A stretch of 62,849 nucleotides of DNA from the NCBI GenBank assembly GCA_046590325.1, contig JBKJUC010000123.1, positions 1 through 62,849 of the forward strand. Reading direction: 5' to 3'. The notes below the pieces were generated by a model. That model did not search any database. It was not told the DNA's origin and worked only from the letters and a program-made list of their open reading frames with translations. Made by a program: the position numbers and the translations under genes. Origin of the DNA: Burkholderiales bacterium. Lineage in GTDB: Bacteria > Pseudomonadota > Gammaproteobacteria > Burkholderiales > JACQAP01. The stretch's first letter is position 1. Every line of letters begins with the position of its first letter. Below, one piece after another: positions 1,794-39,486 of this stretch.

Positions 1794-5350
<3,557 letters not shown>

Positions 5351-5468
5351 TCCGTAAGGCGTCGACCAGATCCATAGCGGGCGCCGCGCAAGTGACGCCC
5401 GTAGCCGGGACATTTCGGTGTAGGATCGCGGCGTGCGCTGCTCCCGCGCACGCCCATCCCGCTCTTCC

Positions 5469-6526: not shown

Positions 6527-6552
6527 TAGGGTTTGCCACCGGCCGCATCACT

Positions 6553-6558
6553 TATAAT
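6553..6558 (+). promoter_or_regulatory. Putative -10 box (TATAAT) for uvrD
   Basis: Perfect TATAAT 32 nt before uvrD ATG. Confidence 0.45.
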
Positions 6559-6590
6559 CCGGGATCGAAAACGTAACGCCCCGTTCCCGA

Positions 6591-8774: not shown

Positions 8775-8780
8775 AGCGGA

Positions 8781-9527: not shown

Positions 9528-9534
9528 GGCAAGC

Positions 9535-10500: not shown

Positions 10501-10512
10501 CGAGTGGCGGGA

Positions 10513-11241: not shown

Positions 11242-11266
11242 GCTGTGTTTTCCGCACTGACCGTCA

Positions 11267-13993
11267 ATGAAAACGCTGGTGCTGGTTGATGGCTCTTCCT
11301 ATCTTTACCGTGCTTTCCACGCGCTGCCAGACTTGCGCAACAAGCACGGAGAGCCTACCGGCGCGATCAGGGGTGTTCTTTCCATGCTGCGCCGGTTGCG
11401 CAAGGAAACAGCAGGCGATTATATCGCTTGCGTATTCGACGCAAAAGGAAAGACATTCCGCGACGACTGGTACCCGCAATACAAAGCCAACCGGCCGCCG
11501 ATGCCCGACGATCTTGTCGCGCAGATCGAACCGCTCCACCATAGCATCCGCGCGATGGGGTGGCCCCTGCTGATGGTGGACGGCGTCGAGGCGGACGACG
11601 TGATCGGCACTCTGGCAAAGCAGGCCGGGCAGCAGGGCATGCAAACCATCATTTCCACCGGCGACAAGGACATCACACAACTGGTGAATCCCCTGGTGCG
11701 CCTGGTCAATACCATGTCCAACGAGAATCTCGATGAAGCGGGCGTCGAGACCAAGTTCGGCGTCAAGCCGTCTCAGATCGTGGATTACCTCACGCTGATC
11801 GGCGACTCGGTGGACAACGTCCCCGGTGTCGACAAGGTTGGTCCGAAGACCGCTGTCAAATGGCTCGCCCAGTATGGGACGCTGGACAACATCGTCGCGC
11901 ATGCCGGAGAGATATCGGGAGCAGTGGGAGAAAACCTGCGCAAGGCTCTGCCCTGGCTGCCGACGGCCAGAAAACTGCTGAGCATCAAGTGCGACGTCGA
12001 ACTTCCGCTTAACCTCGACGATCTCACGCCGAGGCCGGACGATGTAAAGGAATTGTCCGTGCTGTTCGAACACCTCGAGTTCAAGGCCTGGCTGAACGAA
12101 CTTCAGGGACGCGGGTTGGGAGACGGGCGAGGAGGCGAAAAGCAAACCGGCTCAACCTCCCAGGCTCCGCAGCCGAAGCAGGCGGTGTCGCGGGAATACG
12201 AAACTGTGCTGACCGACGAACAGCTTCGGGCCTGGCTGGCGCGCGTCGAAAGCGCCAGGATCGTTTCGGTCGATACGGAAACCACGAGCCTGGATCCCCT
12301 GACCGCGCAACTGGTGGGCATCTCCCTCTCGGTCGAGGCGGACAAGGCCGCCTACATACCGGTGTCGCACACCTACGCCGGTGCGCCGGCGCAACTTTCC
12401 ACCGATCACGTGCTGTCGGTCCTGCGGGGCTGGCTGCAGAATCCGCAACGGCCGAAACTGGGTCAGAACCTCAAGTACGACAAGCACGTGTTTGCGAATC
12501 ACGGCGTGGCGCTCAACGGCATCGAGCACGACACACTGTTGCAGTCGTATGTTCTCGAGAGCGACCGGCCGCACGACATGGACGACATGGCGATGCGCCA
12601 CCTCGAAGTAAAGACCATCAGCTACGACGACGTCACCGGCAAGGGCGCCTCCCGCATCTCGTTCGAACAGGTGGACGTCGCGCGGGCGACGGAATATTCC
12701 GGCGAAGACGCCGACATCACTCTGCAGCTTCACCAGACCCTGTATCCGCGGATTTCGGCGGACGAAAAACTCGAACGCGTCTACCGCACTATCGAGATGC
12801 CGGTGATGGAAGTCCTGTTCATCATGGAGCGCAACGGCGTCCTGCTCGACATCAGGCTACTCGAGCAGCAGAGCCGCGAACTCGGCGCCAAGATGATGGA
12901 ACTGGAACAGGCGGTACATCAGCAGGCGGGCCAGCCCTTCAACCTGAACTCGCCGAAACAGCTCCAGGAAATCCTGTTCGAGAAACACAAGTTGCCGGTC
13001 AAGAAGAAAACGCCGGGCGGCCTGCCTTCGACCGACGAGGACGTGCTGCAGGAACTGGCTCTTGATCACCCGCTGCCGAAACTCATCCTGGAGTACCGCG
13101 GACTTACGAAACTGAAGTCGACCTATACCGACAAACTGCCGCGCATGGTGAACGCGAAAACCGGACGCGTTCACACCAACTATGGCCAGGCAGTTGCTGT
13201 AACCGGACGCCTGTCGAGCAACGAGCCGAATCTGCAGAACATTCCGGTACGTACTACTGAGGGTCGCCGCATCCGGGAGGCCTTCATCGCTCCCCCGGGT
13301 TCGATTATCGTCTCGGCCGATTACTCCCAGATCGAGTTGCGCATCATGGCGCACCTGTCGCAGGACAAGGGACTGCTGCACGCCTTTGCCACCGGCCAGG
13401 ACGTGCACCGGCATACGGCGGCTGAAGTCTTCGGGATCGACTCGGCTTCCGTCAGCAGCGAACAGCGGAGGTACGCCAAGGTGATCAACTTCGGTCTGAT
13501 CTACGGCATGTCGGCGTTCGGCCTCGCGGCCCAGCTTGGCATCGAGCGCGGCGCGGCCAATCAGTATATGGAGCGCTACTTCCTGCGCTATCCCGGCGTG
13601 AAGGAGTACATGGAGCGCACCCGCGAATCCGCGCGCAATTTCGGCTATGTGGAAACGGTGTTCGGACGCCGGCTGTATCTGAACGAGATCAAGTCTGGCA
13701 ATCCGGCACGGCGCCAAGGCTCCGAGCGGGCGGCCATCAATGCACCGATGCAAGGCACCGCGGCGGATCTGATCAAGCTCGCGATGATCGTCGTGCAGGA
13801 CTGGATTCGCGATTCAGGCCTCGTCAGCCGCCTGATCATGCAGGTACACGACGAACTGGTACTGGAAGTTCCGCAGGCGGAACTGGAACTGGTGAAGAAA
13901 CAATTACCCGCGTTGATGGAAGGCGTGACGCAACTCGACGTGCCGCTGGTTGTCGACGTTGGCGCCGGACCGAACTGGGAGAAGGCGCACTAG
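11267..13993 (+). CDS. polA: DNA polymerase I
   Basis: 5'-3' exonuclease (LVDGSSYLYRAFHA), 3'-5' exonuclease (DTETT), polymerase motifs DYSQIELR, KVINFGLIYG, QVHDEL. Confidence 0.99.
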   Translation: MKTLVLVDGSSYLYRAFHALPDLRNKHGEPTGAIRGVLSMLRRLRKETAGDYIACVFDAKGKTFRDDWYPQYKANRPPMPDDLVAQIEPLHHSIRAMGWPLLMVDGVEADDVIGTLAKQAGQQGMQTIISTGDKDITQLVNPLVRLVNTMSNENLDEAGVETKFGVKPSQIVDYLTLIGDSVDNVPGVDKVGPKTAVKWLAQYGTLDNIVAHAGEISGAVGENLRKALPWLPTARKLLSIKCDVELPLNLDDLTPRPDDVKELSVLFEHLEFKAWLNELQGRGLGDGRGGEKQTGSTSQAPQPKQAVSREYETVLTDEQLRAWLARVESARIVSVDTETTSLDPLTAQLVGISLSVEADKAAYIPVSHTYAGAPAQLSTDHVLSVLRGWLQNPQRPKLGQNLKYDKHVFANHGVALNGIEHDTLLQSYVLESDRPHDMDDMAMRHLEVKTISYDDVTGKGASRISFEQVDVARATEYSGEDADITLQLHQTLYPRISADEKLERVYRTIEMPVMEVLFIMERNGVLLDIRLLEQQSRELGAKMMELEQAVHQQAGQPFNLNSPKQLQEILFEKHKLPVKKKTPGGLPSTDEDVLQELALDHPLPKLILEYRGLTKLKSTYTDKLPRMVNAKTGRVHTNYGQAVAVTGRLSSNEPNLQNIPVRTTEGRRIREAFIAPPGSIIVSADYSQIELRIMAHLSQDKGLLHAFATGQDVHRHTAAEVFGIDSASVSSEQRRYAKVINFGLIYGMSAFGLAAQLGIERGAANQYMERYFLRYPGVKEYMERTRESARNFGYVETVFGRRLYLNEIKSGNPARRQGSERAAINAPMQGTAADLIKLAMIVVQDWIRDSGLVSRLIMQVHDELVLEVPQAELELVKKQLPALMEGVTQLDVPLVVDVGAGPNWEKAH

Positions 13994-14051
13994 CTGATAG
14001 GCTGGTGGCTGCTGGCTAGGGGCTAGAAAAGGCTAGAGAGTGTCCTTCTTC

Positions 14052-14086
14052 TTTTCCCTTTTCCCTTTTCCCTTTTCCCTTTTCCC
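14052..14086. repeat. Tandem heptamer (TTTTCCC)x5
   Basis: Five exact copies in the convergent polA-sodC gap. Confidence 0.95.
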
Positions 14087-14099
14087 TCGTCTCTCGCTT

Positions 14100-14666
14100 C
14101 TACCCTTCCTTCGTCTTCCTGTCCGGGTTGCGCGTGATGACCCCGCAGGCAATGCGTGCCCCGGAGTTCCCGGCAGGCTGGGATTTGAGATCATCTGCAT
14201 TGGCGTGGACAACCAGTGCGCGCCCGACAATGCTGTCCGTTCCGTTGCCGAATGCAAGGCCGCCGTCGACTACCACGGTGGCTGCGATGTTGCCCTTGTC
14301 GTCCGCAGTCAGATTTCCCAGATCACCGCCATGGCGTTTGGAGCCGGCCGTCCCGCCGTGATCGGACGATGAAGGATTGAAGTGGGGACCCGCGCTGGCG
14401 CCGTCGCGCGCCGTGCAATCGCCAATTTCATGGATGTGAATGCCGTGCGTGGAATTTGGGGAAAAACCGCTCAGATTGGCGGTGACCAGCACCACCCCAC
14501 CCTTGCGTACAAAATCCACCGCGCCGCGCACCGTGCTTCCCTGGGTGGGCTCGAGTACCGCCATTGCGGACGGATCCTCGTAGCGGGTTCCACCCTTGTC
14601 GTGGCCCGCGCAAGCCGGCAGCATCAGTCCACATGCGGCCGCTATAAGCCATCCGGTTGTTTTCAT
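14100..14666 (-). CDS. sodC: Cu/Zn superoxide dismutase, lipoprotein
   Basis: Start trimmed to MKTTGW; lipobox LPAC; HGIHIH, GPHFNP, HGGDLGN, VVHA, GARIACG give a full metal-ligand set. Confidence 0.95.
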   Translation of the reverse strand: MKTTGWLIAAACGLMLPACAGHDKGGTRYEDPSAMAVLEPTQGSTVRGAVDFVRKGGVVLVTANLSGFSPNSTHGIHIHEIGDCTARDGASAGPHFNPSSSDHGGTAGSKRHGGDLGNLTADDKGNIAATVVVDGGLAFGNGTDSIVGRALVVHANADDLKSQPAGNSGARIACGVITRNPDRKTKEG

Positions 14667-24526: not shown

Positions 24527-26599
24527 TCAGTCGCCGAACATCAGCTTTAGTGCGAGAAATGCGCTCCGCCCGGGCAACGGATAGGCGCTGAAGCGACCCG
24601 GAGTAAAGATGCTGGTCACTGCGTAGTTGTAGTACTCCTCGTCGAACAGGTTGTTCACAGTCAGGGAGAGGCTGGCCCTGCGCATTTCGTAGGCCAGGCG
24701 CAAGTCTGTTGTGCTGTAGGACGGGATCTTTGTGCCGAACTCGTTCTCCTCGTCATTTTCCATGAACTGGCTGTCGACGTAACTCCACAGACCGTCGAGA
24801 TGCAGTTGCTCTGTCAACCTGAAGGCTGCGCTCACGCTCGCCCGGTTGCGCGCGACAAGTGGAACTGTTTTGCCCGCGACGCTGGTGGTGCCGCCATCGA
24901 TGGTGCCTTCCTTGAACTCCGCTTCGGTATAGGTATAGGCCAGACGCAGGTCGATGCGCGCCGTCGGCCGGGTACCGAACTCGGCCTCGATCCCCTGCCT
25001 TCGTGAAGCGGGCAGGTTGGTGTTGCCCGTACCAAAGGAGAAGGGATCCAGATGAATCTCGTCCTTCAAGTCCATCTGGAATACGCCGATCCTGGCCCGG
25101 GAGGACTGGTGACGCCAATCCAGCCCCAGCTCATAAGTTTCCGAAGTTTGCGGACGCAGGAACTGGAATTCCTGCGCGAAGCTTGCCGAGCCCTCGTACA
25201 GTTCATCCACCGTGGCAAAGCGGAATGCCCGCGACCCCCGGACATAGGCCGACCAGTTGTCGTTCAGTCCCTGGCGTACGCCGAGTTCGAGTGCATGCTG
25301 CTGCTCGTTCTGCTCACCCTGCGGCGATCCACCATTGATGAAGGAGGGATTGGGTGCCGTCGAATCGAACGTATCCGTTGCATCGATGCTGAACCACTCG
25401 AGCCTGGCACCCGCCGTGACCGTCGTCCTGGGTGTGAGGGTAAGGGTCTCCAGGAAATAGACGGCGCGATTCTCCTGCTGCGCGTCCACCCTGTGGATGG
25501 GCTGCCCGATCGTGGCCACCGAACTGGACTGGTCCAGACGATAGTCCCAGACATACCAGTCGAATCCCACCACCAGGCTGCCAGGCAGGGCCGATTGCGA
25601 ATGATCGAAACGCAACCGCGGCGTCACCGCGAAGACATCGAGATCGACTTCGCGGTAATCCGGAAAACCACTGAAATCGAAATAGGAAGTCTGCTCCTTG
25701 CGGCGATACGAGAGTCCCACTATCGACGCGACGTTCCCGTCAGCGCGCGTCCAGTCGAACTGCAGGGAACCGTCGTCGCGCGTCGCGTAGTCCTTGGGCG
25801 TGGTGGCTCCACGGCGATCTGTTTCCAACAGATTCTCGCCGATGCTCGGCTGGACGGCCCGCCCACCCGGCAGCCGGAGATCCTGCCGCGCCCCGGCGAA
25901 CCGGAGCGAGAAGTCGTTCTTGTCACCGCCCCACCTGGCGTCGGCAAACGCCGCCGACTGGGTGTTCTCATTGTTGTCGCGATAACCGTGCGAATCGAAC
26001 CAGGATCCACCGACTCGCAAGCCGGCGCTTTCTCCCGCAAGGTCGCCATCCACCCGCGCGGTATAGGTATCGAAGCTTGCCGCCCCGAGGGTGACCGATG
26101 CCCGGTTTCCGTCGTTACCCGGCTTGCGGGTAATGATGTTGATGACCCCGGACACCGCCCCGTCGCCATACAGGACGGCACCGCTGCCGCGCAGGATCTC
26201 GATGCGCTCGATGAAATCAAGCGGAATCGCGGACCACTGCACGCCGGAAAAATCGATGTCGTTCTGCCGGCGGCCATCGACCAGGATCAGCGTATTCTGG
26301 GCCGCGGCAGCGCCAAAGCCCCGCATATCCACGGTGGCCTGGGCGCCATTGTTGCCAAACAGGTCCCTGCCCCCGAGGCCGGCTTGCGACGCCAGGAGTT
26401 CCGGCACCGTCCGGGCCGGAGAGCGCCGGATCTGCTCCGAGGAAATTACGCTCACGCTGACAGGCTTGTCGGCATAGCCGTCTTCGAACCGCGTGGCGGT
26501 CACCACGACTTCCTCGGTTACCAGATTGGTAGTGTCCTGCGCGAAAGACGTACTGACGACAGCGCAACCGGCGAGGATCGCCGGCAAGAGGGCCTTCAT
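24527..26599 (-). CDS. btuB: TonB-dependent receptor, probable cobalamin transporter BtuB
   Basis: Signal peptide, TonB box EEVVVTATR, plug (IERIEILRGSGAVLYG), NNLFDEEY; cobalamin riboswitch upstream. Confidence 0.85.
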   Translation of the reverse strand: MKALLPAILAGCAVVSTSFAQDTTNLVTEEVVVTATRFEDGYADKPVSVSVISSEQIRRSPARTVPELLASQAGLGGRDLFGNNGAQATVDMRGFGAAAAQNTLILVDGRRQNDIDFSGVQWSAIPLDFIERIEILRGSGAVLYGDGAVSGVINIITRKPGNDGNRASVTLGAASFDTYTARVDGDLAGESAGLRVGGSWFDSHGYRDNNENTQSAAFADARWGGDKNDFSLRFAGARQDLRLPGGRAVQPSIGENLLETDRRGATTPKDYATRDDGSLQFDWTRADGNVASIVGLSYRRKEQTSYFDFSGFPDYREVDLDVFAVTPRLRFDHSQSALPGSLVVGFDWYVWDYRLDQSSSVATIGQPIHRVDAQQENRAVYFLETLTLTPRTTVTAGARLEWFSIDATDTFDSTAPNPSFINGGSPQGEQNEQQHALELGVRQGLNDNWSAYVRGSRAFRFATVDELYEGSASFAQEFQFLRPQTSETYELGLDWRHQSSRARIGVFQMDLKDEIHLDPFSFGTGNTNLPASRRQGIEAEFGTRPTARIDLRLAYTYTEAEFKEGTIDGGTTSVAGKTVPLVARNRASVSAAFRLTEQLHLDGLWSYVDSQFMENDEENEFGTKIPSYSTTDLRLAYEMRRASLSLTVNNLFDEEYYNYAVTSIFTPGRFSAYPLPGRSAFLALKLMFGD

Positions 26600-26732
26600 T
26601 GGTTTTTCTCCCTGAAATGCACGCCCGCCGCGTGCGGTGATTGATGACAGGGAGTTTTCGTATGGGTCGTGTTCGGAATGCCGGTGCGATCCGGTTCCGG
26701 ATGCCCGCCCCGCGCGGAAACTCCGTTCGCGA

Positions 26733-26956
26733 TCGTCGGGCCGGTATCCGGGCTTGCGAACCGGGCGTGTCGCCTTCCCATGGGGCTTTCCGGAAAACCA
26801 TCCCGGATTACCTCACAGTGGCCTGATGACACGCCCCTGAAGTCGCTTACCGTTGCGGGGGCAGCACAGGAATTGCTGCGACGGACGTTAATCCGGCGCG
26901 CGCGCACCTGTTTCCCGTTTGACCCTTACGGACAATCCGGCCGGGCACCCGAGAAC
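26733..26956 (-). ncRNA. Cobalamin (AdoCbl) riboswitch
   Basis: Minus strand: GGTGCCC...AAACGGGAAACAGGTG...GCCCCCGCAACGGTAA...GCCACTG...GGGAAGG...AAGCCCGGATACCGGCC (B12 box); upstream of a TonB receptor. Confidence 0.93.
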
Positions 26957-27037
26957 GTGGCGGAATTCTATCTCAAGGACCGGCGGCACCAAACTGGTTT
27001 GCCGGGGCCAGTTGAGCAAAGCCCACCAGCGAGCACG

Positions 27038-27617: not shown

Positions 27618-27628
27618 AGACTGTCAAT

Positions 27629-27802
27629 GTCCCCTGCGTTGTCGTCAGGCTTTAATTCTTTGAACCAATGTTACTTCTCTTGGTTGCGGCCTAATGCAGC
27701 GCTGTTGTGCGCGTCCCAATGCGGAAGCGCCTGATGTGCTCGGAAAGCGACCACCTTGGACCCTAGGTTCAAGATGACGGCCTGACGGCACGCGCGGGGG
27801 GC
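27629..27802 (+). ncRNA. ssrS: 6S RNA
   Basis: Ends pair (ccctgcgttgtcgtcaggc with gcctgacggcacgcgcgggg); internal tgaacc and ggttcaag motifs; canonical position after zapA. Confidence 0.88.
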
Positions 27803-27819
27803 TCCCTATGCGGAAGAAC

Positions 27820-29188: not shown

Positions 29189-29812
29189 TCAGCCGCGCGT
29201 CTTGAACCAGCCGGTCAGGCTAAAGCGCTCACGCTTTGCCGGCAGGACTTCGTGCGGAAAACGATCACTGAGGAACAGAACCAGCGTCCCGCCGTCCGGC
29301 CTGATATCCACATGCCTGGACACCGGCTTTCGCTCGAGGTAAAGCCGCAGTTCGCCGCCGTCTTCACTTTGCCAGTTCGAATTGAGGTAAAGGATGCTCG
29401 AGAGGCGTCGCCTTGAGTCTCTGCTGAACTGGTCGAGGTGTTTGCGGTAGAACGCGCCAGGCGCGTATCGGGCGAAGTGACATTCGAACTCGAACAGGCC
29501 GAGCTGCAGTTCCCGGTTCAGTTTCAGGCGAATTTCTTCGAAGCGATCCAGGCATTCCTTTTGCGCTTCACTGCTGCCCGACTGTTCCAGCCAGAGGATC
29601 TGGTCGGCACGAACATCTCCGGCAATCTGGCGGTCAGCGCCGCTGCCGATCGCGGCGTCATGAAACGAACCCTGGGCGGCCAGCCGGGCGCATTCCTCGC
29701 CGAGGGCCGCGACCATTCCGGGGACAATGAATGATGGAATCGCAACCCAGCCATCGCGACCTATCCGGTCACTGATCCGCTCGAGCACGTCGAGGTCTTG
29801 CACGGTATTCAT
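29189..29812 (-). CDS. 2OG-Fe(II) oxygenase, prolyl-4-hydroxylase (PHD/PPHD)-like
   Basis: Y..G.FYRKHLD (HxD), ILYLN..W, GGEL, HEVLP, R.SLTGWF. Confidence 0.88.
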   Translation of the reverse strand: MNTVQDLDVLERISDRIGRDGWVAIPSFIVPGMVAALGEECARLAAQGSFHDAAIGSGADRQIAGDVRADQILWLEQSGSSEAQKECLDRFEEIRLKLNRELQLGLFEFECHFARYAPGAFYRKHLDQFSRDSRRRLSSILYLNSNWQSEDGGELRLYLERKPVSRHVDIRPDGGTLVLFLSDRFPHEVLPAKRERFSLTGWFKTRG

Positions 29813-29829: not shown

Positions 29830-30669
29830 CTAGAGTTTTCCCACTTTGGGTGTATCGCAAGCAGACAGCTCGCCGGCCTCCAATCCGCGCCTGAACCAGC
29901 GAACCCGCTGCTCCGAACTGCCGTGCGTGAAGCTTTCCGGCGCTACATGGCCGCGCGCCTGCGTCTGCAGCCGGTCATCGCCGATCGCCGATGCGGCGTT
30001 CAATCCTTCTTCGATGTCGCCGGCTTCCAGCACCTGCCGCGAACGATTCGCGTGATTGGCCCAGATGCCCGCAAAACAATCCGCCTGTAATTCCTGGCGT
30101 ACTGACAACCGATTGGCCTGCTCCGGGCCGGACCGGGCTGCCTGGGCAACTTTGCCTGTAGTCCCCAGCAGGTTCTGCACATGATGGCCGACTTCATGGG
30201 CGATGACGTAGGCTTGCGCGAAATCGCCCGATGCGCCGAGGCGTTTGTCCAGGGTCTGGAAGAAGTCGAGATCGAGATAGACTTTCTGGTCGCCGGAGCA
30301 ATAGAACGGGCCAACGGCGGATTGCGCGAAGCCGCAGGCCGATTGCACGGCGCCGGAGAAAAGTACCAGCGTGGGCACCTGGTATTGCGCACTGCCGCGC
30401 CGGAAGATTTCGCCCCAGGTATCCTCGGTATCGGCGAGCACGACGGCCACGAATTCCTTGATGCCGTCCTGCGCCGGATCGACCGGAGCGGCGCTCTGCG
30501 GCGATGTCGGCCCCGCGTCCTGCAGGATCACACGGGGGTCCACGCCGAAAAACATGGCAATCAGCGCGATCACGACCACGCCGATTCCGCCGCCGGCAAT
30601 GCGGCCCGGCATGCGCATGCCGCGCCTGTCCTCTATATTTTCGCTACGCCTTCCGCTTTGCCAGCGCAT
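29830..30669 (-). CDS. ypfJ: Neutral zinc metallopeptidase YpfJ family
   Basis: MRWQSGRRSENIEDRRG, GPFYC, AHEVGHHVQ (HExxH), ELQADC, THGSSEQR; GAGGAG SD. Confidence 0.93.
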   Translation of the reverse strand: MRWQSGRRSENIEDRRGMRMPGRIAGGGIGVVVIALIAMFFGVDPRVILQDAGPTSPQSAAPVDPAQDGIKEFVAVVLADTEDTWGEIFRRGSAQYQVPTLVLFSGAVQSACGFAQSAVGPFYCSGDQKVYLDLDFFQTLDKRLGASGDFAQAYVIAHEVGHHVQNLLGTTGKVAQAARSGPEQANRLSVRQELQADCFAGIWANHANRSRQVLEAGDIEEGLNAASAIGDDRLQTQARGHVAPESFTHGSSEQRVRWFRRGLEAGELSACDTPKVGKL

Positions 30670-32182
30670 GCAGGTCTCCTCGGGTGTCGCGGTAGCGCCC
30701 GCGGAGCTCCGCTTTCTGCACCTTGCCCATGGCATTTCGCGGCAGGTCGTCGACAAGGTACACCTGCTTGGGCACCTTGAAGTTCGCCAGGTTCTTGCTC
30801 AGCTCCGCAATAATTGCCGCCGGTTCCAGTTGCGAGCCCATGCGCGCTACGACTACCGCAATCACCGCCTCGCCGAAATCGGGATGCGGCACCCCGATCA
30901 CCGCCGATTCGGCCACGCCAGGGAGCGCATCCAGCGCCAGTTCGATCTCCTTGGGATAAACGTTGTAGCCCCCACTGATGATCAGGTCCTTGGCGCGGCC
31001 AACGATTGAAAGATAGCCGTCGCCATCGATCAGGCCAATGTCGCCGGTGCGGAACCAGCCGTCCACGGTGAATTCGTCGCGGGTTTTCTCCGGCATGCGC
31101 CAGTAGCCGCTGAACACATTCTCGCCCTTGACCTGGATGCCCCCGATCTCCCCCGGTGGCAGAATCCGGTCCTGATCCTCGGCGATCCTCACCGATACGC
31201 CCGGCAGCGGAAATCCAACGCTGCCCGGGCGGCGTTCGCCGTTCAGGGGATTGGAGCTGATCATGCCGGTTTCGGACATGCCATAGCGCTCGAGAATGGG
31301 TTGTTCCGTGCGCGTCCGAAACTCGCCGAACGTATCTGCAAGCAATGGCGCGGAGCCGGAAACAAACAGCCTGATCCCCTTTGCCAGTTCGCGCGTGAAA
31401 CCCCTTTCGGCCAGCAGCCGCGTGTAGAACGTTGGCACACCCATCATCACCGTGGCACGCGGCAGATCGCGCAGCACCTGTTGCGCGTCGAACTTGCGAT
31501 GCCACAGCAGCTTTGCCCCCGACAGCAGCGCGCAGTGATTGGCGACGAACAGTCCGTGCACATGGAAAATCGGCAGGGCATGCAGCAGCGTATCCTTTTC
31601 GCTGAAATCCCAGTACGCCACCAGGGTTCGCGCATTCGATTCAAGATTGCGATGCGTGACCATGGCACCCTTGGAACGGCCGGTGGTTCCTGAGGTATAG
31701 ATGATGACCGCCAGATCGTCCGCCTGCATTTCGACCGTTGGGAATTCCGGCACCCGTCCAGCCGCGGACTGTACCAGGCTGCCCTCGCCATTTTCATCGA
31801 GGGACAGAACCTGGGCCCGGCCCGCCGAGAGTTCCTGCATGGTTTCGACTGACCCGGGTCGGCATATGATTGCCCGTGGTTCGGCGTCTCCGATGAAATG
31901 GGACAGCTCGCCGCGCTGATAGGCGGTGTTTAGCGGCACATAGACCAGCCCGGCGCGCAGGCAGGCCAGGTAGAGGAACAGGGATTGCGGCGACTTCTCG
32001 GCCTGCACCGCGACACGGTCGCCGCGCTTTGCGCCGAGGGACAGCAACAGGTTGGCAAGGCGTGCGCACTCGCCGGCGGCGTCGGCGCGGCTGAAGATTC
32101 TGCCGTCGTCGGTTTCGAGTAGTACGCTGCTGCCGCGGCTGTGTCCGGCAGCTTCGATGGCCGCATAGAAATTTGCATTCAT
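30644..32182 (-). CDS. matB: Malonyl-CoA (methylmalonyl-CoA) synthetase MatB
   Basis: YTSGTTGRSKG, HALPIFHVHGLFVA, LERYGMSET, GWFRTGD, SGGYNVYPKEIE, PRNAMGKVQK; HALPIFHVHGLFVA and PRNAMGKVQK are MatB-typical. Confidence 0.9.
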   Translation of the reverse strand: MNANFYAAIEAAGHSRGSSVLLETDDGRIFSRADAAGECARLANLLLSLGAKRGDRVAVQAEKSPQSLFLYLACLRAGLVYVPLNTAYQRGELSHFIGDAEPRAIICRPGSVETMQELSAGRAQVLSLDENGEGSLVQSAAGRVPEFPTVEMQADDLAVIIYTSGTTGRSKGAMVTHRNLESNARTLVAYWDFSEKDTLLHALPIFHVHGLFVANHCALLSGAKLLWHRKFDAQQVLRDLPRATVMMGVPTFYTRLLAERGFTRELAKGIRLFVSGSAPLLADTFGEFRTRTEQPILERYGMSETGMISSNPLNGERRPGSVGFPLPGVSVRIAEDQDRILPPGEIGGIQVKGENVFSGYWRMPEKTRDEFTVDGWFRTGDIGLIDGDGYLSIVGRAKDLIISGGYNVYPKEIELALDALPGVAESAVIGVPHPDFGEAVIAVVVARMGSQLEPAAIIAELSKNLANFKVPKQVYLVDDLPRNAMGKVQKAELRGRYRDTRGDLHALAKRKA

Positions 32183-32185
32183 GCG

Positions 32186-33448
32186 CTAGACCAGGGTGTC
32201 GATGACCCCGGACTGAAGGTAGTCGTCGATGCTGGTCTGCGAACTTTGCCTTCTCAGCACGCGCGCAATCGCCGCCGGGGGAAGGAGCTGTACGCTGGCG
32301 CCGGGTAACGCGACGACGCGAGCTGCCGGCGCCGCCAGCGCGACGTAGATCCCGCCGGCCGCATCGCCGAGGACCTGCAACGTAAGCCGGTGTCCGGCTT
32401 CGCGAATGCTGGACAGTACAAGCGCCAGGTGGGCAACGTACTCCGACAGCAGCATGCGCTCGTCGCGGAAAGTCGGCGCCTGTCCGGGGGAATCAAGCAG
32501 CAGCGTAAGCGCATCTCCAGGGTGGGCATCGGCGAACTGCATGCATTCTCCCGCAAGCGTCCAGGCTGCAAGCGCGCCGACAGGCGCGCCACCGACGAAG
32601 CCAAAGTAACTGTTGGGTGCGGTCGGCAGGATGCGTCCGCTCATTGCGCCGTCCGTTTCGCGCGCTTCGAAAGTCGCCGGCACCAGATCGAGAAAAGTCT
32701 CCGGGAGCCGGGGCGTTTTCGCTGCAGGCGACGGCGCCATGTCGTGAGTGAGCAGGCGCGCGCCCAGGCGGTTGTGCTGCTCCCGCAGATCCGGGGGGGC
32801 ACCAGGCCGCGCCAGCCAATCCAGGGCAGCCTGGCGAAATGCGTGAATCGTGTCTTCGTTCAGGCGGCCCGCGAACTCCATTGCCGCGCGCGCGGTACCG
32901 CCCATCAGGGCATTGACCGCCTGCGCGTCCGACGCATCGAGTTCATTGCGCCCGCCGAGCGCCTGGATTACCGCCGGCCCCGACATCGCCAAGCGCGATC
33001 CCAGCGCATAGACGCGCTGCCCGCATGTAGCGGCGAGCATGCTCGCGCCACCAAAACAATCACGGCCCAGCAATGCCAGCATCGGCACACCCGCAAGACG
33101 CAGATCGAGAACCTGGCGATAGAGTTGCCGGAAAGCGCCGAGCGCGGGCAGGCCTTCATCGAGGCGCGCGCCCGCCGAGTCCAGGCAAAGTATGAGAGGC
33201 AGGCTGGCGGCCTGATCCTGCCTGATGAGCTCAGTCAGCGCGTGGGATTCGGCAACACCGAATGAACCACCGGCGACGTCACGATCGGTTGCCGCAATCA
33301 CCACCGGTTTGCCGCCGAGCAGGCCATTACCCGCACAAAGCGAACCCTGCGGGGTCGAGGGCGTGCGAACGAACGAGCCCGGGTCGAGCAGTCTCTCGAT
33401 CCGCTGCAGGGCGCCGCTTCCGGAATAGGAATCCACAGGTGCAGGCAT
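32186..33448 (-). CDS. Fused biotin-independent malonate decarboxylase beta+gamma (MdcD-MdcE) carboxyltransferase-fold protein
   Basis: N-half: DSAGARLDEG, CFGGAS, RLAMSGPAVIQ, LDASD..MGG..R (MdcD-like). C-half: LLDSPGQA..RDE, REAGH..LQVLGDAAGGIYVA, AAIARVLR (MdcE-like). One open frame. Confidence 0.8.
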   Translation of the reverse strand: MPAPVDSYSGSGALQRIERLLDPGSFVRTPSTPQGSLCAGNGLLGGKPVVIAATDRDVAGGSFGVAESHALTELIRQDQAASLPLILCLDSAGARLDEGLPALGAFRQLYRQVLDLRLAGVPMLALLGRDCFGGASMLAATCGQRVYALGSRLAMSGPAVIQALGGRNELDASDAQAVNALMGGTARAAMEFAGRLNEDTIHAFRQAALDWLARPGAPPDLREQHNRLGARLLTHDMAPSPAAKTPRLPETFLDLVPATFEARETDGAMSGRILPTAPNSYFGFVGGAPVGALAAWTLAGECMQFADAHPGDALTLLLDSPGQAPTFRDERMLLSEYVAHLALVLSSIREAGHRLTLQVLGDAAGGIYVALAAPAARVVALPGASVQLLPPAAIARVLRRQSSQTSIDDYLQSGVIDTLV

Positions 33449-33462
33449 GCGATGGTTTCCGG

Positions 33463-34593
33463 TCAGAGCCCGCACCAGCGGCGGGTGATTTCCTCGTAGG
33501 CCGCAACGGCCTCGCCGATTCGCTCAACCACGCAGTATTCGTCGGTCTGGTGTGCCATCTGTGCCTCTCCAGGACCGAGGATGACCGTCGGTGGCATTCT
33601 GTACGCCACATTGAGCGCGGCGGCATCCGTGAAATAAGTCGCAACGCGCGGCTCCGGCCGGGCGCCGAGGTAGGGCTGCATCACATCGAACACTTCCTGC
33701 ATCCAGGCATGTTCGGGTTCCGTGTACACGCTCTCCAGGTCAAGGATGGTTTCCAGCTCGACTTCGCTGCCAAGCTGCTTCTGCAACTCCATCCTTAGCT
33801 TCGCATGGTTCACGGTTGGCACGGTACGAATGTCCACGGTCATGACGGCTTCATCGGGCACCGAATTGATGTTGAGGCCGCCATGGATGGTGCCGACGTT
33901 CAGCGTCGCCTGCCCCATCAGCGGGTGTGGCGGATTGTCGAAACGGAATTTTTCCAGGACGGCAAGCGCACGCGCCGCCTTGAATACGGCATTGACGCCT
34001 TTCTCCGGCATGGAACCGTGGGCTGTCACGCCTCGGGTGCGGGCGTACAACCAGAATGCGCCCTTGTGGCCGACAAACGGATAGTTTGAACTGGGTTCTG
34101 CCACCACCACCGCGCCGGCGCGGCCCAAGGCGCCGGACTTCTGGCTGAGGTGAAAAGCGCCCTGGCAGCCGGTTTCCTCACCGGCCGTGATGACCAGCTC
34201 GAGTCCCGCAGTGCGTTCGAGTTTGTCGGCGAGATTGATTGAGGACGCGACGAAGGCGGCAACGCCGGATTTCATGTCGCTGATGCCACGGCCATACATC
34301 CGGCCGGCGTCGGTATCGGCCGCAAACGGATCCATTTTCCATTTCGCCGCACCCAGCGGGACCGTGTCGATGTGCCCGGTGAAGCACAGCGGCGCCTTGG
34401 CGGAAGAACCGCCGATCGTCGCCACCAGGCTGGATCGGCCCGGAGAGAACTCGTGGTACTTCACCGCAAAGCCGGCCTTTTCCAGCAGGCCACCCACGTG
34501 CCGCGCACATAATTCCTCCGCCCCTGGCGGGTTGACGGTGTTCATGCGCACCAACTGCCTGCTCAGTTCGATTGCGTCGATGCCTGCTGCCAC
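33463..34593 (-). CDS. M20 family amidohydrolase (ArgE/DapE-like)
   Basis: TGHIDTVP, GRGISDMKSG, GEETG, VAEPS, AHQTDE give a complete di-metal site; GTG start with AAGGAG SD. Confidence 0.93.
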   Translation of the reverse strand: MAAGIDAIELSRQLVRMNTVNPPGAEELCARHVGGLLEKAGFAVKYHEFSPGRSSLVATIGGSSAKAPLCFTGHIDTVPLGAAKWKMDPFAADTDAGRMYGRGISDMKSGVAAFVASSINLADKLERTAGLELVITAGEETGCQGAFHLSQKSGALGRAGAVVVAEPSSNYPFVGHKGAFWLYARTRGVTAHGSMPEKGVNAVFKAARALAVLEKFRFDNPPHPLMGQATLNVGTIHGGLNINSVPDEAVMTVDIRTVPTVNHAKLRMELQKQLGSEVELETILDLESVYTEPEHAWMQEVFDVMQPYLGARPEPRVATYFTDAAALNVAYRMPPTVILGPGEAQMAHQTDEYCVVERIGEAVAAYEEITRRWCGL

Positions 34594-34605
34594 ACCTTTT
34601 CTCCT

Positions 34606-35331
34606 TCAGTTTTCCTGCTGGTGTCCGAAATAGGCTGCCCGCACTTGTGGATTTTCGCGCAGGTCGGCCGCCGGACCGGCCGCCACGACGCGTCCTTGTG
34701 ACAGGACGTAGCCGGCGTGTGCGATTGCCAGTGTCTGGCGGACGTTCTGTTCCACCAGGAGCACCGTCACTCCAGTTTCGTTGACGCGCCGGATCACGTT
34801 GAAATTCTCCTTCACGTACAACGGCGACAGGCCAAGGGAAGGCTCATCGACGATGAGCAGCGATGGCGCCGCCATCAGTCCGCGGCCGATGGACAGCATG
34901 GCCTGCTCACCTCCGGACATGGTACCCGCAAGCTGGCCGATGCGCTCCCGAAGCCGGGGGAAGATCTCGAAGACGCCGTCCATCCTCTGGTCGAGAGTCG
35001 ACGCGTCTGCTTCGCGATAGGCCCCCATTCGCAAATTGTCGCGCACGGTCATGCGCGGAAACACGCGCCGGCCTTCTGGAATGCAGGCAATGCCGCGGCG
35101 CACGATCTGATGCGTGGGCAGTCCGGTGATGTCAGAACCATCATGCAGGATGAGGCCGCTGCGCGGTGGTGTGAGGGACAGGATGGAACGGATCAGCGTG
35201 GTCTTGCCGGCGCCATTGGCGCCCAGGATGCAGGTGATCTTTCCGGGCTCGACCAGCAGGGAAACGCCATGGAGTACGTCGGCCTTGTCGTAAGCCGTGT
35301 ACACGCCCTCCAGCGCCAGCGTAGCGGTCAT
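34606..35331 (-). CDS. livF: Liv-type ABC transporter ATPase (LivF-like)
   Basis: GANGAGKT, MSGGEQAML, DEPSLGLSP. Confidence 0.9.
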   Translation of the reverse strand: MTATLALEGVYTAYDKADVLHGVSLLVEPGKITCILGANGAGKTTLIRSILSLTPPRSGLILHDGSDITGLPTHQIVRRGIACIPEGRRVFPRMTVRDNLRMGAYREADASTLDQRMDGVFEIFPRLRERIGQLAGTMSGGEQAMLSIGRGLMAAPSLLIVDEPSLGLSPLYVKENFNVIRRVNETGVTVLLVEQNVRQTLAIAHAGYVLSQGRVVAAGPAADLRENPQVRAAYFGHQQEN

Positions 35332-36108
35332 TCAGTCTTCCCCCAGATAGGCCTTGCGCACCCGTTCATCGGCCGCCACATCGCGAAAGGCGCCTTCGCA
35401 AATTTTCTCGCCGTAGTTGAGAACGGCACAACGCTGCGTCACGCGCTCGATCAGGTTCATCTCATGTTCGATGAGGATCACCGACAGCGTGGGAAGCTGC
35501 GCACGCGCGGCGAGCAGGTCGTCCATCAGCTCACCGGTTTCGTCATGCGTCATGCCCGCAGACGGCTCGTCGAGCAGCAGGATGCGCGGCCTGCCGATCA
35601 GCGCACGGCAGATTTCGACGCGCCGGCGATCGATCATCGGCAGGGCCTCGACGGGATCGGACAGGCGGCAGGACAGGGGTTTGCTGAAGGTCGCCAGTAG
35701 TTTGCGCGCCGTCACTACGTTCTCTTCGTAATGCTGCCGCAGCCGGGTCCGCCGGATCAGGTTGGTCCAGATGCCGAGATCGAGATTGCGATGGTTGCCA
35801 ACCATCAGGTTGTCGAATACCGACAACGGCAGGCACAGGCGCGACCGCTGAAAGGTTCGTGCCACGCCTGCATCGCACACCTGCTGCGGGGATGCGCCGG
35901 TTATGTCGCGCCCGTCGACCTTGACGCTGCCCGCTGCGGGCTTGTAAAGGCCGGTGAGGGCGTTGAAGAACGTGGTCTTGCCGGAGCCGTTCGGCCCGAT
36001 CAATCCCAGGATCTCGCCAGCATCGAGCTTCAGGTCGAGTGCGTTAAGGGCGGTAAGGCCGCCGAATCGAACGGTGAGACCTTCTGCGACTAGAACGTTG
36101 GCGCTCAT
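35332..36108 (-). CDS. livG: Liv-type ABC transporter ATPase (LivG-like)
   Basis: GPNGSGKTT, ARTFQ, LDEPSAGM, VRKAYLG. Confidence 0.9.
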   Translation of the reverse strand: MSANVLVAEGLTVRFGGLTALNALDLKLDAGEILGLIGPNGSGKTTFFNALTGLYKPAAGSVKVDGRDITGASPQQVCDAGVARTFQRSRLCLPLSVFDNLMVGNHRNLDLGIWTNLIRRTRLRQHYEENVVTARKLLATFSKPLSCRLSDPVEALPMIDRRRVEICRALIGRPRILLLDEPSAGMTHDETGELMDDLLAARAQLPTLSVILIEHEMNLIERVTQRCAVLNYGEKICEGAFRDVAADERVRKAYLGED

Positions 36109-37262
36109 CCGGGCCTGCGCTCGCCGAAATAGGTCCGCAACCGGCGGGGCAGTAGTCCCTGCGGGCGGAACAACAGGATCGCGATGACGAGCAGCGAATA
36201 AAGCAAAAACCGGTACTCCTGGATCATCTGCAGTTTTTCCGGAAGCACCAGCAGCAGGAGCGCGGCGGGAATCACCCCGAGTGCGTTGCCCAGTCCGCCG
36301 AGGATCACGATCGAAACCAGAATCAGCGAATCACCGAACGTGAAACTGGTCGGCGCAATGAAGCCCGTCATCATCGCGTACACGGCGCCGGCCATGCCGG
36401 CGAGCAGATTTCCCAGCGTGAACGCGAAGATTTTCCAGCGGGCGACGCCGATGCCGAATACCGAGGCTGCGGTCTCATCCAGCCTGACGGCGTCGAACGA
36501 AAGTCCTATCCAGGATTTTTCCAGCCGACGGACCATCACATAGGCGAACACCGCAAGCGCAACGGCCAGGAGTACGTAGTTCAGATAGAACGACGCTTCG
36601 ATGTTTTCGCCGATGCGGATCGGGTCGTTGAATGACCTGCCGAACAGCATCATCGGCGGCACCTTGAGTCCCTGCGGACCGCCGAGCGTATCGTTCACTT
36701 CCAGGAAAGTCTTGAACAGGATGCCGAATGCAATGGTGATCAGTGCAGCATAGTGGCCGCGCGTGCGCAAAATCGGAAGAATGAGAATCGAGCCGATCAG
36801 GGCTGCAGCAAGGCCGCTCAGCAGGATGACCAGCAGGTGCGGAATCCCGGTGTGTGTGGCCAGAACCGCCGTAGCATAACAACCGATTCCGAAGAAGGCC
36901 GCTCCGGCGAAGTTGACGATGCCGGCGTAGCCGAACTGGATGGTCAGGCCGAGGCAGACGGTCACGTAAAGCGCCACGGTGGCCAGCATCAGCAGCGCGA
37001 AGTGGGCGTCATAGAGCACTGCGGCGACTGTTGCAGCAGCCAGCAAGGCGAGGATGACCGCGCTGCGGGGATGAGCCACCGCAGCCTCTTCGATACGGTC
37101 CGTGGCGCCGAACCTGCGGAATACGATCAGCCCGATGATTGCGGCAACGGCAAGTGCCGCGATCTCCCATTGGCGCTCGATCTCCAGGAACAGGATGGTG
37201 AAGCCCGTCAGCATCGCCAGGCCCAGCGCGACGGAAATCAGGTTTCTGGTTCGTTCGCCCAT
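36105..37262 (-). CDS. livM: Liv-type ABC transporter permease (LivM-like)
   Basis: GYAGIVNFAGAAFFGIG, RGHYAALITIAFG, ILGGLG, RPQGL. Confidence 0.9.
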   Translation of the reverse strand: MGERTRNLISVALGLAMLTGFTILFLEIERQWEIAALAVAAIIGLIVFRRFGATDRIEEAAVAHPRSAVILALLAAATVAAVLYDAHFALLMLATVALYVTVCLGLTIQFGYAGIVNFAGAAFFGIGCYATAVLATHTGIPHLLVILLSGLAAALIGSILILPILRTRGHYAALITIAFGILFKTFLEVNDTLGGPQGLKVPPMMLFGRSFNDPIRIGENIEASFYLNYVLLAVALAVFAYVMVRRLEKSWIGLSFDAVRLDETAASVFGIGVARWKIFAFTLGNLLAGMAGAVYAMMTGFIAPTSFTFGDSLILVSIVILGGLGNALGVIPAALLLLVLPEKLQMIQEYRFLLYSLLVIAILLFRPQGLLPRRLRTYFGERRPG

Positions 37263-37265
37263 GCC

Positions 37266-38183
37266 CTACACGCGTTCTGCCGTTCTTTCGGCAATCAGGC
37301 CGGTGGGTTTCCAGGCCATCAGCAGAATCACCGCTGCGAAGGCAAAGACATCCTTGTAGGCGGGGACGGAGAACCACACCGCGCCGATGGTCTGCAGTCC
37401 GGCAAACAGGAATCCGCCAAGGATGGCGCCATAGATGTTGCCAAGCCCGCCGGCCACCGCCGCCGAAAACCCGATGACACCTAGCAGCAGGCCCATGCCG
37501 AAATTGATCTCGTTGTAATAAAGGCCGTTGGTCACGCCCGCAAGCGCGGCAAGCGCGGAGCCCAACGCGAACGTGATCATGACCACCTGCTCGAAATTGA
37601 CCCCCATGACGCGGGCGGTTTCCGGATCCTGCGCAACCGCCCGGATTGCCAGTCCCAGCCTGGTGCGGTTTATGAGCAGGTGTACCAGGACGATGGCACC
37701 AATGCCGGCGGCCAGCAGAATCATGCTGTCCGCCCGCAGGGTGAAATTGCCGATGGCGTAGGAATCGGTCGGCAGCAACGACGGAAACGGTTTGGGATTG
37801 GAACCGTTGGGATAGAACAAGCGCACCGCTTCGCGCAACGCCAGGCCGAGCATGAGCGTGATCAGCAGCGTATTGAGCGGCGGGCTTTCGCGCAGGGGCA
37901 GAACCAGGAAACGCGCAATGAGGGCGCCGAGCAGAGCCGTTGCCGCTAGGGCGGCGGCGCTAACCGCGAGCAACAGAGCGATGATCGAGGTTACTCCTAG
38001 ATGTTGCAGGCCGAGGAAGGTGGCCAATGCAACAAAGGCGCCGACCATCACCACGTCGCCGTGGGAAAACTTGATCACATCGAGCACGCCGAAGAAGAGC
38101 GTGAAGCCGACTGCGACCATCGCATAAATGACGCCAAGCATCAGGCCATTGACAATGTACTGGCCTGCGAGTCCGAAATCCAT
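37266..38183 (-). CDS. livH: Liv-type ABC transporter permease (LivH-like)
   Basis: NGLMLGVIYAMVAVGFTL, FSHGD, IRAVAQD, GGLGNIYGA, KPTGL. Confidence 0.9.
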   Translation of the reverse strand: MDFGLAGQYIVNGLMLGVIYAMVAVGFTLFFGVLDVIKFSHGDVVMVGAFVALATFLGLQHLGVTSIIALLLAVSAAALAATALLGALIARFLVLPLRESPPLNTLLITLMLGLALREAVRLFYPNGSNPKPFPSLLPTDSYAIGNFTLRADSMILLAAGIGAIVLVHLLINRTRLGLAIRAVAQDPETARVMGVNFEQVVMITFALGSALAALAGVTNGLYYNEINFGMGLLLGVIGFSAAVAGGLGNIYGAILGGFLFAGLQTIGAVWFSVPAYKDVFAFAAVILLMAWKPTGLIAERTAERV

Positions 38184-38201
38184 CGAAGCGGACGCGGTCG
38201 C

Positions 38202-39353
38202 TCAGGGCCTGGGCAGCTTGCGCTTGCCCTTCGCGTACTCGCTGTCTTCCCAGACTGCCCATTTGCCGTCCTGGACGACGAACTTGGTAATCAGCGGCAC
38301 GGTATTCTGGCCGTGGTCGTCGAACGTAACCATGCCGACGATGGACTGGTGATCGCGGGTTGTGTTGAGTTCGGCCCTCACCTTCTTGCGGTCCGGGCCC
38401 ACCTTTTCGATCGCATCGATGATGAGGCTGGTAGCGACGTAGGCAAACGCGCCGTAGGCTTCGGGGGGATCCGGGTACTTCTGTTTCTGGTATTGCTCCA
38501 GGAAAAGCTTTCCGCCGGGAAGTTTCTCCGCGGGCGCGCCTTCGCGAAAAGCCAACGCGCCCTCGGCAAGCGGGCCCAGGCCTTCGATGAATGCGTCGGA
38601 GACGATGCCCGAGGTACCCTGGAACACCGCCCTGATGCCGAGCTTTTCCATCTGCGAGCGGATACGCACCCCGATGGGCGTCAATCCGCCGAAGTAGATG
38701 ACTTCCGGCTTGAGCTCCTTGATCTTGGTCAGCTCGGCGTTGAAATCCTGCTGATCTGCTGTCACGCCGAAGGTGCCAAGGACGGTTCCGCCCAGTCGGG
38801 CTATGTCCTCGGAGAAGTACTTGTTGTGGCCTTTGCCGTAATCGGTGGTGTCGTGAATGATCACCCACTTTTTGTACTTGAGCCCGGCCATGAATGTCGC
38901 CGCGACCTCGTTCTGGTTGATCATGGTGCCGTTGACCCGGTGCACTTCGTCATAGTCGTGGGCGTAGGTCACGTCCGGCAGCACCGCGCCCCAGACGATC
39001 ACGGGCAAACCGAACTTGTGATAGACATCGACGGTGCCCATGGCGACCGCCGAGCAGTAGTGGGTGACGCCGGCGATGATCTTGCGATCCGCTGCGGCTT
39101 TGGTCGCAACCTGTACGCCGATGTTCGGTTTGCACTCATCGTCGAGCACGATAAGCTCGTATTCGTACTTTGTCGCAGAGTCAGCGTTGCGCACGCGGAC
39201 CGCGAGATCCGCCGAATTGCGGCCGCCGATGCCGTTAGCGGATACGCCACCGGTAAGCGGTCCGATGAATGCAATCCTGACGGAGTCTTTCGCCGCGGCA
39301 GGAAACGCCAGCAGCAGCAGCGAGACAAACAGAATTGCAGGGCGCAGCGGCAT
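38202..39353 (-). CDS. livK: Liv-type ABC transporter substrate-binding protein (LivK/LivJ-like)
   Basis: Signal peptide, IAFIGPLTG, DDECKP, HYCSAV, HDTTDYGKG, DFNAELTKIK. Confidence 0.88.
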   Translation of the reverse strand: MPLRPAILFVSLLLLAFPAAAKDSVRIAFIGPLTGGVSANGIGGRNSADLAVRVRNADSATKYEYELIVLDDECKPNIGVQVATKAAADRKIIAGVTHYCSAVAMGTVDVYHKFGLPVIVWGAVLPDVTYAHDYDEVHRVNGTMINQNEVAATFMAGLKYKKWVIIHDTTDYGKGHNKYFSEDIARLGGTVLGTFGVTADQQDFNAELTKIKELKPEVIYFGGLTPIGVRIRSQMEKLGIRAVFQGTSGIVSDAFIEGLGPLAEGALAFREGAPAEKLPGGKLFLEQYQKQKYPDPPEAYGAFAYVATSLIIDAIEKVGPDRKKVRAELNTTRDHQSIVGMVTFDDHGQNTVPLITKFVVQDGKWAVWEDSEYAKGKRKLPRP

Positions 39354-39415: not shown

Positions 39416-39444
39416 AGGTTATTGAGTGGATTGCGGGTTGTCAA
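39416..39444 (-). promoter_or_regulatory. Putative sigma70 promoter of the liv-M20-mdcDE-matB operon
   Basis: TTGACA-N17-TAACCT; the -35 is overlapped by inverted repeat GCGGGTT-N8-AACCCGC (39433-39454). Confidence 0.6.
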
Positions 39445-39460
39445 ACAAACCCGCGGCGTT

Positions 39461-39486
39461 AAAAAGCGGCTCGAGGCCGCTCTTTT
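39461..39486 (-). terminator. Intrinsic terminator of the atp operon
   Basis: Minus strand agcggc-ctcga-gccgct followed by T5; also T-rich on the plus strand. Confidence 0.8.

Follow-up and report, generated by a model that had tools for sequence, protein, structure and literature searches.

A possible malonyl-amide operon in uncultured Burkholderiales, combining a Liv-type importer, an M20 deacylase, a single-chain MdcD/MdcE-like carboxyltransferase and MatB

The stretch of DNA analyzed here, termed the window, spans 62,849 nucleotides of a Burkholderiales bacterium (GTDB lineage JACQAP01; contig JBKJUC010000123.1 of assembly GCA_046590325.1), and its minus strand carries a gene cluster, read from position 39353 to 30644 of the window, in which an amino-acid-type ATP-binding cassette (ABC) importer and an M20-family deacylase stand ahead of two genes of malonate metabolism. 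A first-pass annotation had described eight co-oriented and closely packed genes at this place, livK-H-M-G-F, an M20 gene, an MdcD-MdcE fusion and MatB, and the coordinates and families of all eight open reading frames (ORFs) were verified. The cluster begins with a LivK-like periplasmic binding protein of 383 aa with a signal peptide and an altered ligand pocket (38202-39353; PF13458, Peripla_BP_6, 152 bits), followed by a LivH-like permease (37266-38183; PF02653, BPD_transp_2, 150 bits), a LivM-like permease (36105-37262; PF02653, BPD_transp_2, 125 bits, and PRK11301 at 182 bits, under its cut-off) and the LivG-like (35332-36108) and LivF-like (34606-35331) ATPases, each with ABC_tran and BCA_ABC_TP_C domains. 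Thereafter come an M20 deacylase of the ArgE/DapE family with a dimerisation domain, the proposed conjugate amidohydrolase (376 aa, 33463-34593; TIGR01910 239 bits, cut-off 217.6), a single-chain MdcD/MdcE-like carboxyltransferase proposed to be a malonyl-CoA decarboxylase (420 aa, 32186-33448, ORF open to 33475; PF01039 in the N-half and PF06833, MdcE, in the C-half) and a MatB malonyl-CoA synthetase (512 aa, 30644-32182; NF005702 772 bits, cut-off 558).

The genes are separated by 18 nt between livK and livH and 3 nt between livH and livM, livM overlaps livG by 4 nt, livG and livF abut at 0 nt, 12 nt lie between livF and the M20 gene, whose GTG start is preceded by AAGGAG, and 3 nt lie between mdcDE and matB. 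The start of mdcDE was reassigned to the ATG at 33448, giving a product of 420 aa and a 14-nt gap past the M20 stop in place of a 13-nt overlap, and this start is the more likely one because homologues align from residue 7-15. The co-oriented run continues beyond matB into a gene for a YpfJ-type neutral Zn metallopeptidase, a possible operon member (29830-30669, minus strand; NF050010 372 bits, cut-off 250; PF04228), whose ATG at 30669 lies 26 nt inside matB, and 17 nt past ypfJ follows a gene for a 2OG-Fe(II) oxygenase of 207 aa (29189-29812, minus strand; PF13640). The start of this membrane-anchored Zn peptidase within the 3' end of matB suggests translational coupling to the malonate genes. 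ypfJ is present 3' of matB in many, not all, related loci, and the oxygenase gene is a frequent matB neighbour, found downstream of it in families f1, f93 and f99. The transcription unit probably extends into both genes.

Upstream of the cluster lie atpD, atpC and then a terminator hairpin, the intrinsic terminator of the atp operon (39460-39481, minus strand; GC-rich hairpin AGCGGCCTCGAGCCGCT followed by a T-run), which separates that operon from the cluster and has a similar counterpart 3' of atpC in nearly all related loci. The sigma70-like promoter claimed earlier was traced to a candidate at 39416-39444 of the minus strand, with a -35 element TTGACA at 39444-39439, a 17-nt spacer and a -10 element TAACCT at 39421-39416. 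A consensus promoter scan returned no sigma-70 site over threshold, because the -10 element matches at just three of six positions; alignment of the atpC-livK leaders of related genomes, on the other hand, showed that TTGACA-17 nt-TAnnCT right past the atpC terminator is kept in most f1 loci amid diverged flanks. A sigma-70 promoter ahead of livK is thus probable, on the strength of its conservation and not of the scan. A search of the leader against Rfam gave no match. In the related locus L011 the atpC-livK spacer (3838-3900) measures just 62 nt and contains neither the TTGACA promoter nor the terminator's second half, so that transcription of the atp operon would run on into the cluster there.

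The co-localisation of the M20 gene with matB and mdcDE proved to be recurrent. A pattern scan with one genome per GTDB species yielded 41 loci, each encoding the fusion and all from metagenome-assembled genomes of uncultured Burkholderiales or Betaproteobacteria; the order M20-mdcDE-matB was seen in every one that extends far enough, with atpDC-livKHMGF upstream in most. In a 400-genome sample of the order, M20 orthologues occurred in about a dozen families, and wherever a locus with an M20 of at least 64% identity was checked (34 of 34; families f1, f93, f120 and f130), mdcDE and/or matB followed directly after it. The core stays intact even with mdcDE at 35-45% identity, a value that compares with 64-72% for M20 and 68-77% for the binding protein. 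One f93 genus with genomes of about 2 Mb has kept atpDC-livKHMGF-M20-matB-2OG and lost mdcDE. MatB was detected in 57 of 201 sampled Burkholderiales genomes overall, as against at least 25 of the 30 that were M20-positive.

The importer points away from its namesake. The best solved matches of the LivK-like protein are E. coli LivK and LivJ, at about 30% identity, and it scores 135 bits against the PRK15404 cut-off of 477, far under the level of LivJ and LivK proper. When its pocket was compared with that of E. coli LivK, with the LivJ pocket residue list taken from the literature (PMC6983066), Cys78, Ser79, Ala101 and Tyr150 were found to be kept, and Tyr18, Leu77, Thr102 (now Val), Ala103, Tyr202 (now Leu) and Glu226 (now Ser) were all replaced. 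The kept residues and the replacements of Thr102, Tyr202 and Glu226 are identical in the 12 of 12 LivK-like orthologues examined. A classical Leu/Ile/Val ligand is unlikely because of this score and these replacements, by which an ordinary branched-chain amino-acid importer was excluded. Tyr202 and Glu226 are presumably the ligands of the alpha-ammonium group in the LivJ and LivK structures, and the change of pocket would fit a ligand with a blocked amino group or none at all.

Across the 41 loci the importer was of Liv type in 28, a divergently transcribed DppABCDF system in 6 and lacking in 2, the contig being too short in the remaining 5. DppABCDF (SBP_bac_5, OppC_N, oligo_HPY) occupies the same place, between atpC and M20, and in the two loci without an importer M20 lies directly 3' of atpC. 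Because the Dpp loci are scattered among the Liv loci in the M20 tree, either the importer was swapped more than once or the segment recombines. No LivK orthologue was found in the three Dpp-type genomes tested (G474, G561 and G641) or in G758, whose locus carries no importer, and no orthologue of the DppA of Dpp-type loci was found in the Liv-type genome that carries the window; this looks like the displacement of one importer by another ahead of an unchanged M20-mdcDE-matB core. Where the importer has been lost (L025, L029 and L077), M20 is still joined to mdcDE-matB. The sole close solved relative of the Dpp binding protein, 8VDX, is unannotated and gives no clue to the ligand.

A pocket of this kind could also be taken to mean that the Liv-type system imports malonate itself, or another small dicarboxylate, and that M20 is accessory or unrelated. 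Peripla_BP_6 proteins of other bacteria do bind non-amino carboxylates, for example aromatic and dicarboxylic acids, and the binding protein combines the loss of the two presumed amino-group ligands with a kept equivalent of Ser79. Direct dicarboxylate import is nevertheless highly improbable, since it leaves the invariant M20 unexplained, since the alternative importer at the site is of the Dpp/Opp type, a class not known for simple dicarboxylates, and since TRAP or TctC systems are the carriers met at those matB clusters of the order that have no M20.

The deacylase, placed in the ArgE/DapE subfamily by its TIGR01910 score, has its di-metal and catalytic residues intact and falls under the cut-off of all ArgE and DapE equivalog models (TIGR01246, DapE, 121 vs 362; TIGR01892, ArgE, 197 vs 298). 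Its His, Asp, Glu-Glu, Glu and His ligands align with those of 7UOI, 7RSF and 3IC1, and it retains the lid-domain His and Arg equivalent to His194 and Arg258 of Haemophilus influenzae DapE (HiDapE), residues that were proposed to bind substrate carboxylates, as their counterparts do in Acy1 (PMC4012986). Its motif reads GHKG as in ArgE, where DapE has GRRG. The genome holds a true DapE (contig C233, 557 bits) and an ArgJ (contig C179, 483 bits), so that M20 is not the DapE of this genome and is not required as its ArgE, which leaves it free for a catabolic role; both of these housekeeping identities were excluded by the canonical enzymes elsewhere and by the equivalog scores. The importer and M20 half of the cluster quite likely handles an imported amide with a substituted amino group. 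The sole other M20 paralogue of the genome (28% identity; contig C214, about 3174-7533, minus strand) adjoins two AMP-binding CoA-ligase-like genes, a second pairing of deacylase and ligase in this genome.

The other half of the cluster can be assigned with more assurance. MatB lies well over its family cut-off and matches Rhodopseudomonas palustris MatB (4FUQ/4FUT) over its full length (562 bits, residues 1-499 vs 1-500). The fusion was confirmed to hold two crotonase-like carboxyltransferase domains, its AlphaFold model (pTM 0.81) shows a two-domain carboxyltransferase fold, and in Foldseek both domains align to 12S, PccB and AccD chains with E of about 1e-19. In the genome that carries the window, MdcA (PF16957) gave just a 23.9-bit partial match under the cut-off and MdcC (PF06857) no match, the E. 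coli control being positive for both; the MatA profile (PF05292) found nothing there, though the control gave none either, and tblastn with a PF05292-confirmed Burkholderiales query likewise found nothing at E 1e-5 or better. With MatA, MdcA and MdcC missing from the genome, no way of turning malonyl-CoA into acetyl-CoA is visible apart from the fusion. Membership of a classical Mdc holoenzyme was excluded for the fusion, as the genome has no MdcA or MdcC. Outside Burkholderiales, a 400-genome sample of the phylum contained no such fusion, its matches being generic carboxyltransferases or MdcD and MdcE as separate proteins. In vitro, free MdcD-MdcE acts as a decarboxylase on malonyl-CoA with a kcat of 2.3 per second (PMC5534430), and by analogy with this activity we infer the decarboxylase step for the fusion. 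MatB and MdcDE thus likely form a module that would convert malonate to acetyl-CoA with a new type of decarboxylase.

The acid that passes through this module might instead be an analogue of malonate, the acyl group being methylmalonyl or ethylmalonyl, which MatB would activate and the fusion would convert to propionyl-CoA or butyryl-CoA. Methylmalonate is a substrate accepted by MatB enzymes, methylmalonyl-CoA and propionyl-CoA carboxyltransferases are the nearest solved folds and sequences to the N-half of the fusion, and the presence of the fusion beside MatA in family f133 suggests a specificity unlike that of MatA. Against such an analogue, the fusion halves match MdcD and MdcE best (124 and 98 bits, vs 54 bits for mmdA), MatB scores far over the cut-off of the malonyl-CoA synthases and its orthologues elsewhere in the order stand beside MatA, so that we regard this variant as improbable.

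The whole cluster is tentatively proposed to be an operon for the catabolism of an amide conjugate that bears a carboxylate and has malonate as its most likely acyl part, a reading that is credible while stopping somewhat short of probable. The Liv-derived ABC system would bind and import a ligand whose alpha-amino group is not free, for instance an N-acylated amino acid, a Dpp/Opp-type system taking its place in some relatives. The cytoplasmic ArgE-like M20 enzyme would then cleave the amide to release an amine or amino acid and malonate, MatB would ligate the malonate to CoA, a step that we infer strongly from family membership, and the fusion would decarboxylate malonyl-CoA to acetyl-CoA and CO2 with no need for biotin or the Mdc acyl-carrier protein, replacing the missing MatA. 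In the 2-Mb genomes that have MatB alone, malonyl-CoA would, under this pathway, be supplied directly. Gene order suggests that malonate is what links the two halves, and this is the best single reading that can be offered, albeit a provisional one. The fuller claim, a first dedicated bacterial pathway for malonyl-amide conjugates, N-malonyl amino acids for example, with a Liv importer retuned to N-acylated ligands, an M20 "demalonylase" and a new single-chain malonyl-CoA decarboxylase that needs neither biotin nor an acyl-carrier protein, is possible and somewhat more doubtful.

The surroundings of matB clusters that contain no M20 offer a comparison. Their neighbours include MatA (PF05292) with a TctC receptor, MatA with TRAP DctPQM, an enoyl-CoA-hydratase-family protein with MatA, and the MdcDE-type fusion, which stands with TRAP genes in f136, with MatA in f133 and elsewhere without a recognised carrier nearby. 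The carriers beside these clusters, where present, are of dicarboxylate type; amino-acid or peptide-type ABC importers (Liv, Dpp/Opp) are confined to the matB clusters with M20, and no dicarboxylate carrier gene was found beside any M20-containing cluster. This contrast is the pattern that the idea of the first-pass annotation predicts. Its tie between an amino-acid or amide-type importer and the use of N-malonyl compounds holds in so far as Liv or Dpp/Opp systems are always the importers by the core, the pocket is altered and dicarboxylate carriers occur elsewhere; it is weakened by M20 relatives outside matB contexts and by the confinement of the arrangement to one chromosomal site. In L163, L165, L168 and L169, loci of other Burkholderiales, an enoyl-CoA-hydratase-family gene lies immediately upstream of matB, with or without MatA, and may encode a crotonase-type (methyl)malonyl-CoA decarboxylase.

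The main rival to the malonyl-amide pathway is that two independent modules are adjacent by descent: livKHMGF-M20 would scavenge an N-acyl amino acid or small peptide, yielding an amino acid and acetate, formate or similar, mdcDE-matB would use or detoxify free malonate from another route, and their adjacency and shared promoter would reflect history or loose co-regulation. Each part does occur alone, liv-M20 in L107, L096 and L097, with the same binding-protein pocket and no malonate genes in L107, and mdcDE-matB in L151-L157 and L166; families f136, f127, f129 and f133 have the pair without M20. M20 homologues of 48-63% identity are present in f102 and f104 genomes that have no MatB, and relatives in that range stand in unrelated contexts that are not matB-linked, adjoining the housekeeping genes cysE and erpA in f108, lying within a Dpp-M20-amidase-M20-M81 peptidase cluster in L103 and preceding a Mo-oxidoreductase gene in L107. 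The GHKG motif is that of ArgE, which removes acetyl groups, and several TctC and TRAP paralogues in the genome could carry malonate. All coupled clusters, moreover, lie directly downstream of atpDC in related families, and because of this shared site the coupling was probably one ancestral event kept by descent, so that the many loci count roughly as a single inherited event and not as many independent ones.

Further observations weigh against the malonyl-amide pathway, irrespective of this rival. The M20 tree follows families, and its backbone, a polytomy, does not resolve an exclusive clade of the malonate-linked ones. The fusion is under every MdcD/MdcE equivalog cut-off (NF005530 124 vs 228; TIGR03133 111 vs 278; TIGR03134 98 vs 237), and in f133 (L155 and L157) fusion, MatB and canonical MatA share one cluster, so that the fusion there is not merely a substitute for MatA and may have a distinct role or specificity. 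No basic residue that could meet a second carboxylate was identified at the mapped pocket positions, and no regulator gene lies in the cluster. The literature yielded no paper linking N-malonyl compounds, an amidohydrolase and bacterial malonate use. The plant N-malonyl conjugates that had been suggested as ligands fit poorly with the sources of the cluster's holders and are not an obvious universal substrate, because many of these come from sediment and microbial-mat metagenomes. The sequencing runs that contain the cluster sequence included no RNA runs, all being DNA metagenomes, from soil, sediment, microbial mat and estuary.

Set against juxtaposed modules are the M20-(mdcDE)-matB junctions, which are unbroken over four families even though both flanks vary, in importer type on one side and in the presence of ypfJ and the oxygenase gene on the other. 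M20 remains with matB after the importer is lost, as in the three loci named above, the intergenic gaps of 0-18 nt are operon-like, and dicarboxylate carriers are absent beside every M20 cluster, vs their presence at several M20-less ones. Juxtaposition is a credible alternative, somewhat less likely than the malonyl-amide operon, which is retained as the preferred reading.

Two loci mentioned above are of interest in themselves. L107, in a 2.1-Mb genome of family f4, has livKHMGF-M20 with a binding protein 73% identical to that of the cluster, followed by genes for a 2Fe-2S protein and a molybdopterin oxidoreductase, and its M20 sits on a long branch within the f120 clade, a placement that suggests horizontal transfer of just the module of importer and deacylase. 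In L103, positions 3678-14286 hold DppABCDF, M20, an amidase, a second M20 and an M81 (MlrC-like) peptidase, and its Dpp permeases and ATPases share 67-78% identity with their counterparts beside the malonate core in L010-type loci.

Should M20 free malonate from imported conjugates, it would represent a new specificity in the ArgE/DapE family and the importer a new substrate class for Liv-type systems, the fusion would join MatA and the acyl-carrier-protein-bound Mdc complex as a third kind of malonyl-CoA decarboxylase, and abundant uncultured Burkholderiales would be feeding on a soil and sediment pool of malonyl amides. If the coupling fails, the single-chain MdcDE-MatB pair would still be an undescribed malonate module of at least nine Burkholderiales families, as counted by anonymised family code. 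The cluster proteins are small and soluble.

Elsewhere in the window, a cobalamin riboswitch (86 bits; 26721-26967, minus strand) lies directly upstream of a gene for a TonB-dependent receptor (24527-26599, minus strand), after which come ABC importer genes, and this is an ordinary B12-uptake arrangement. A 6S RNA gene (27628-27804, plus strand; RF00013, 57.6 bits) has an EVE-domain gene and a TauE-family gene close downstream.

Known MatB-based systems of malonate use are matR-matABC of Rhizobium leguminosarum bv. trifolii and the TRAP-linked matPQMAB of Sinorhizobium meliloti, and Burkholderiales versions of such clusters were met in L159-L170. The present cluster shares with the rhizobial systems the conversion of malonate to malonyl-CoA by MatB and of malonyl-CoA to acetyl-CoA by a decarboxylase, as well as the clustering of these genes with an uptake system. 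It differs from them in that MatA (PF05292) is absent from the genome and a single-chain MdcD/MdcE-like carboxyltransferase stands in its stead, in that an ABC system of Liv type (or Dpp type) takes the place of a MatC, TRAP or TctC carrier, and in that an M20 deacylase lies between importer and decarboxylase and no GntR-type regulator gene is present.

With respect to the biotin-independent malonate decarboxylase mdcABCDEGH of Klebsiella, Pseudomonas and Acinetobacter (PMC5534430), the halves of the fusion are nearest to MdcD and MdcE; there, however, the two are separate subunits, whereas here they form one chain of about 420 aa with equivalog scores far under the cut-offs. Neither MdcA nor the acyl-carrier protein MdcC is present in the genome, in searches that did not take in the prosthetic-group enzymes, and the substrate here would be the CoA thioester made by MatB. 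M20 has in common with E. coli ArgE (7RSF), H. influenzae DapE (3IC1 and 5VO3) and the Enterococcus DapE-like enzyme (7UOI) both domains, catalytic and lid, together with the di-metal ligands, the Glu that serves as general base and the His and Arg of the lid. It departs from DapE at Arg178/Arg179, which are His/Lys in M20, and at Tyr197, which is Met, and from ArgE and DapE alike in its catabolic context behind an importer. The importer, finally, resembles E. coli LIV-I (LivJ/K-HMGF) in its five-component architecture, gene order and binding-protein fold family, and is set apart from it by the low score of that binding protein and the replacement of six residues in its pocket.

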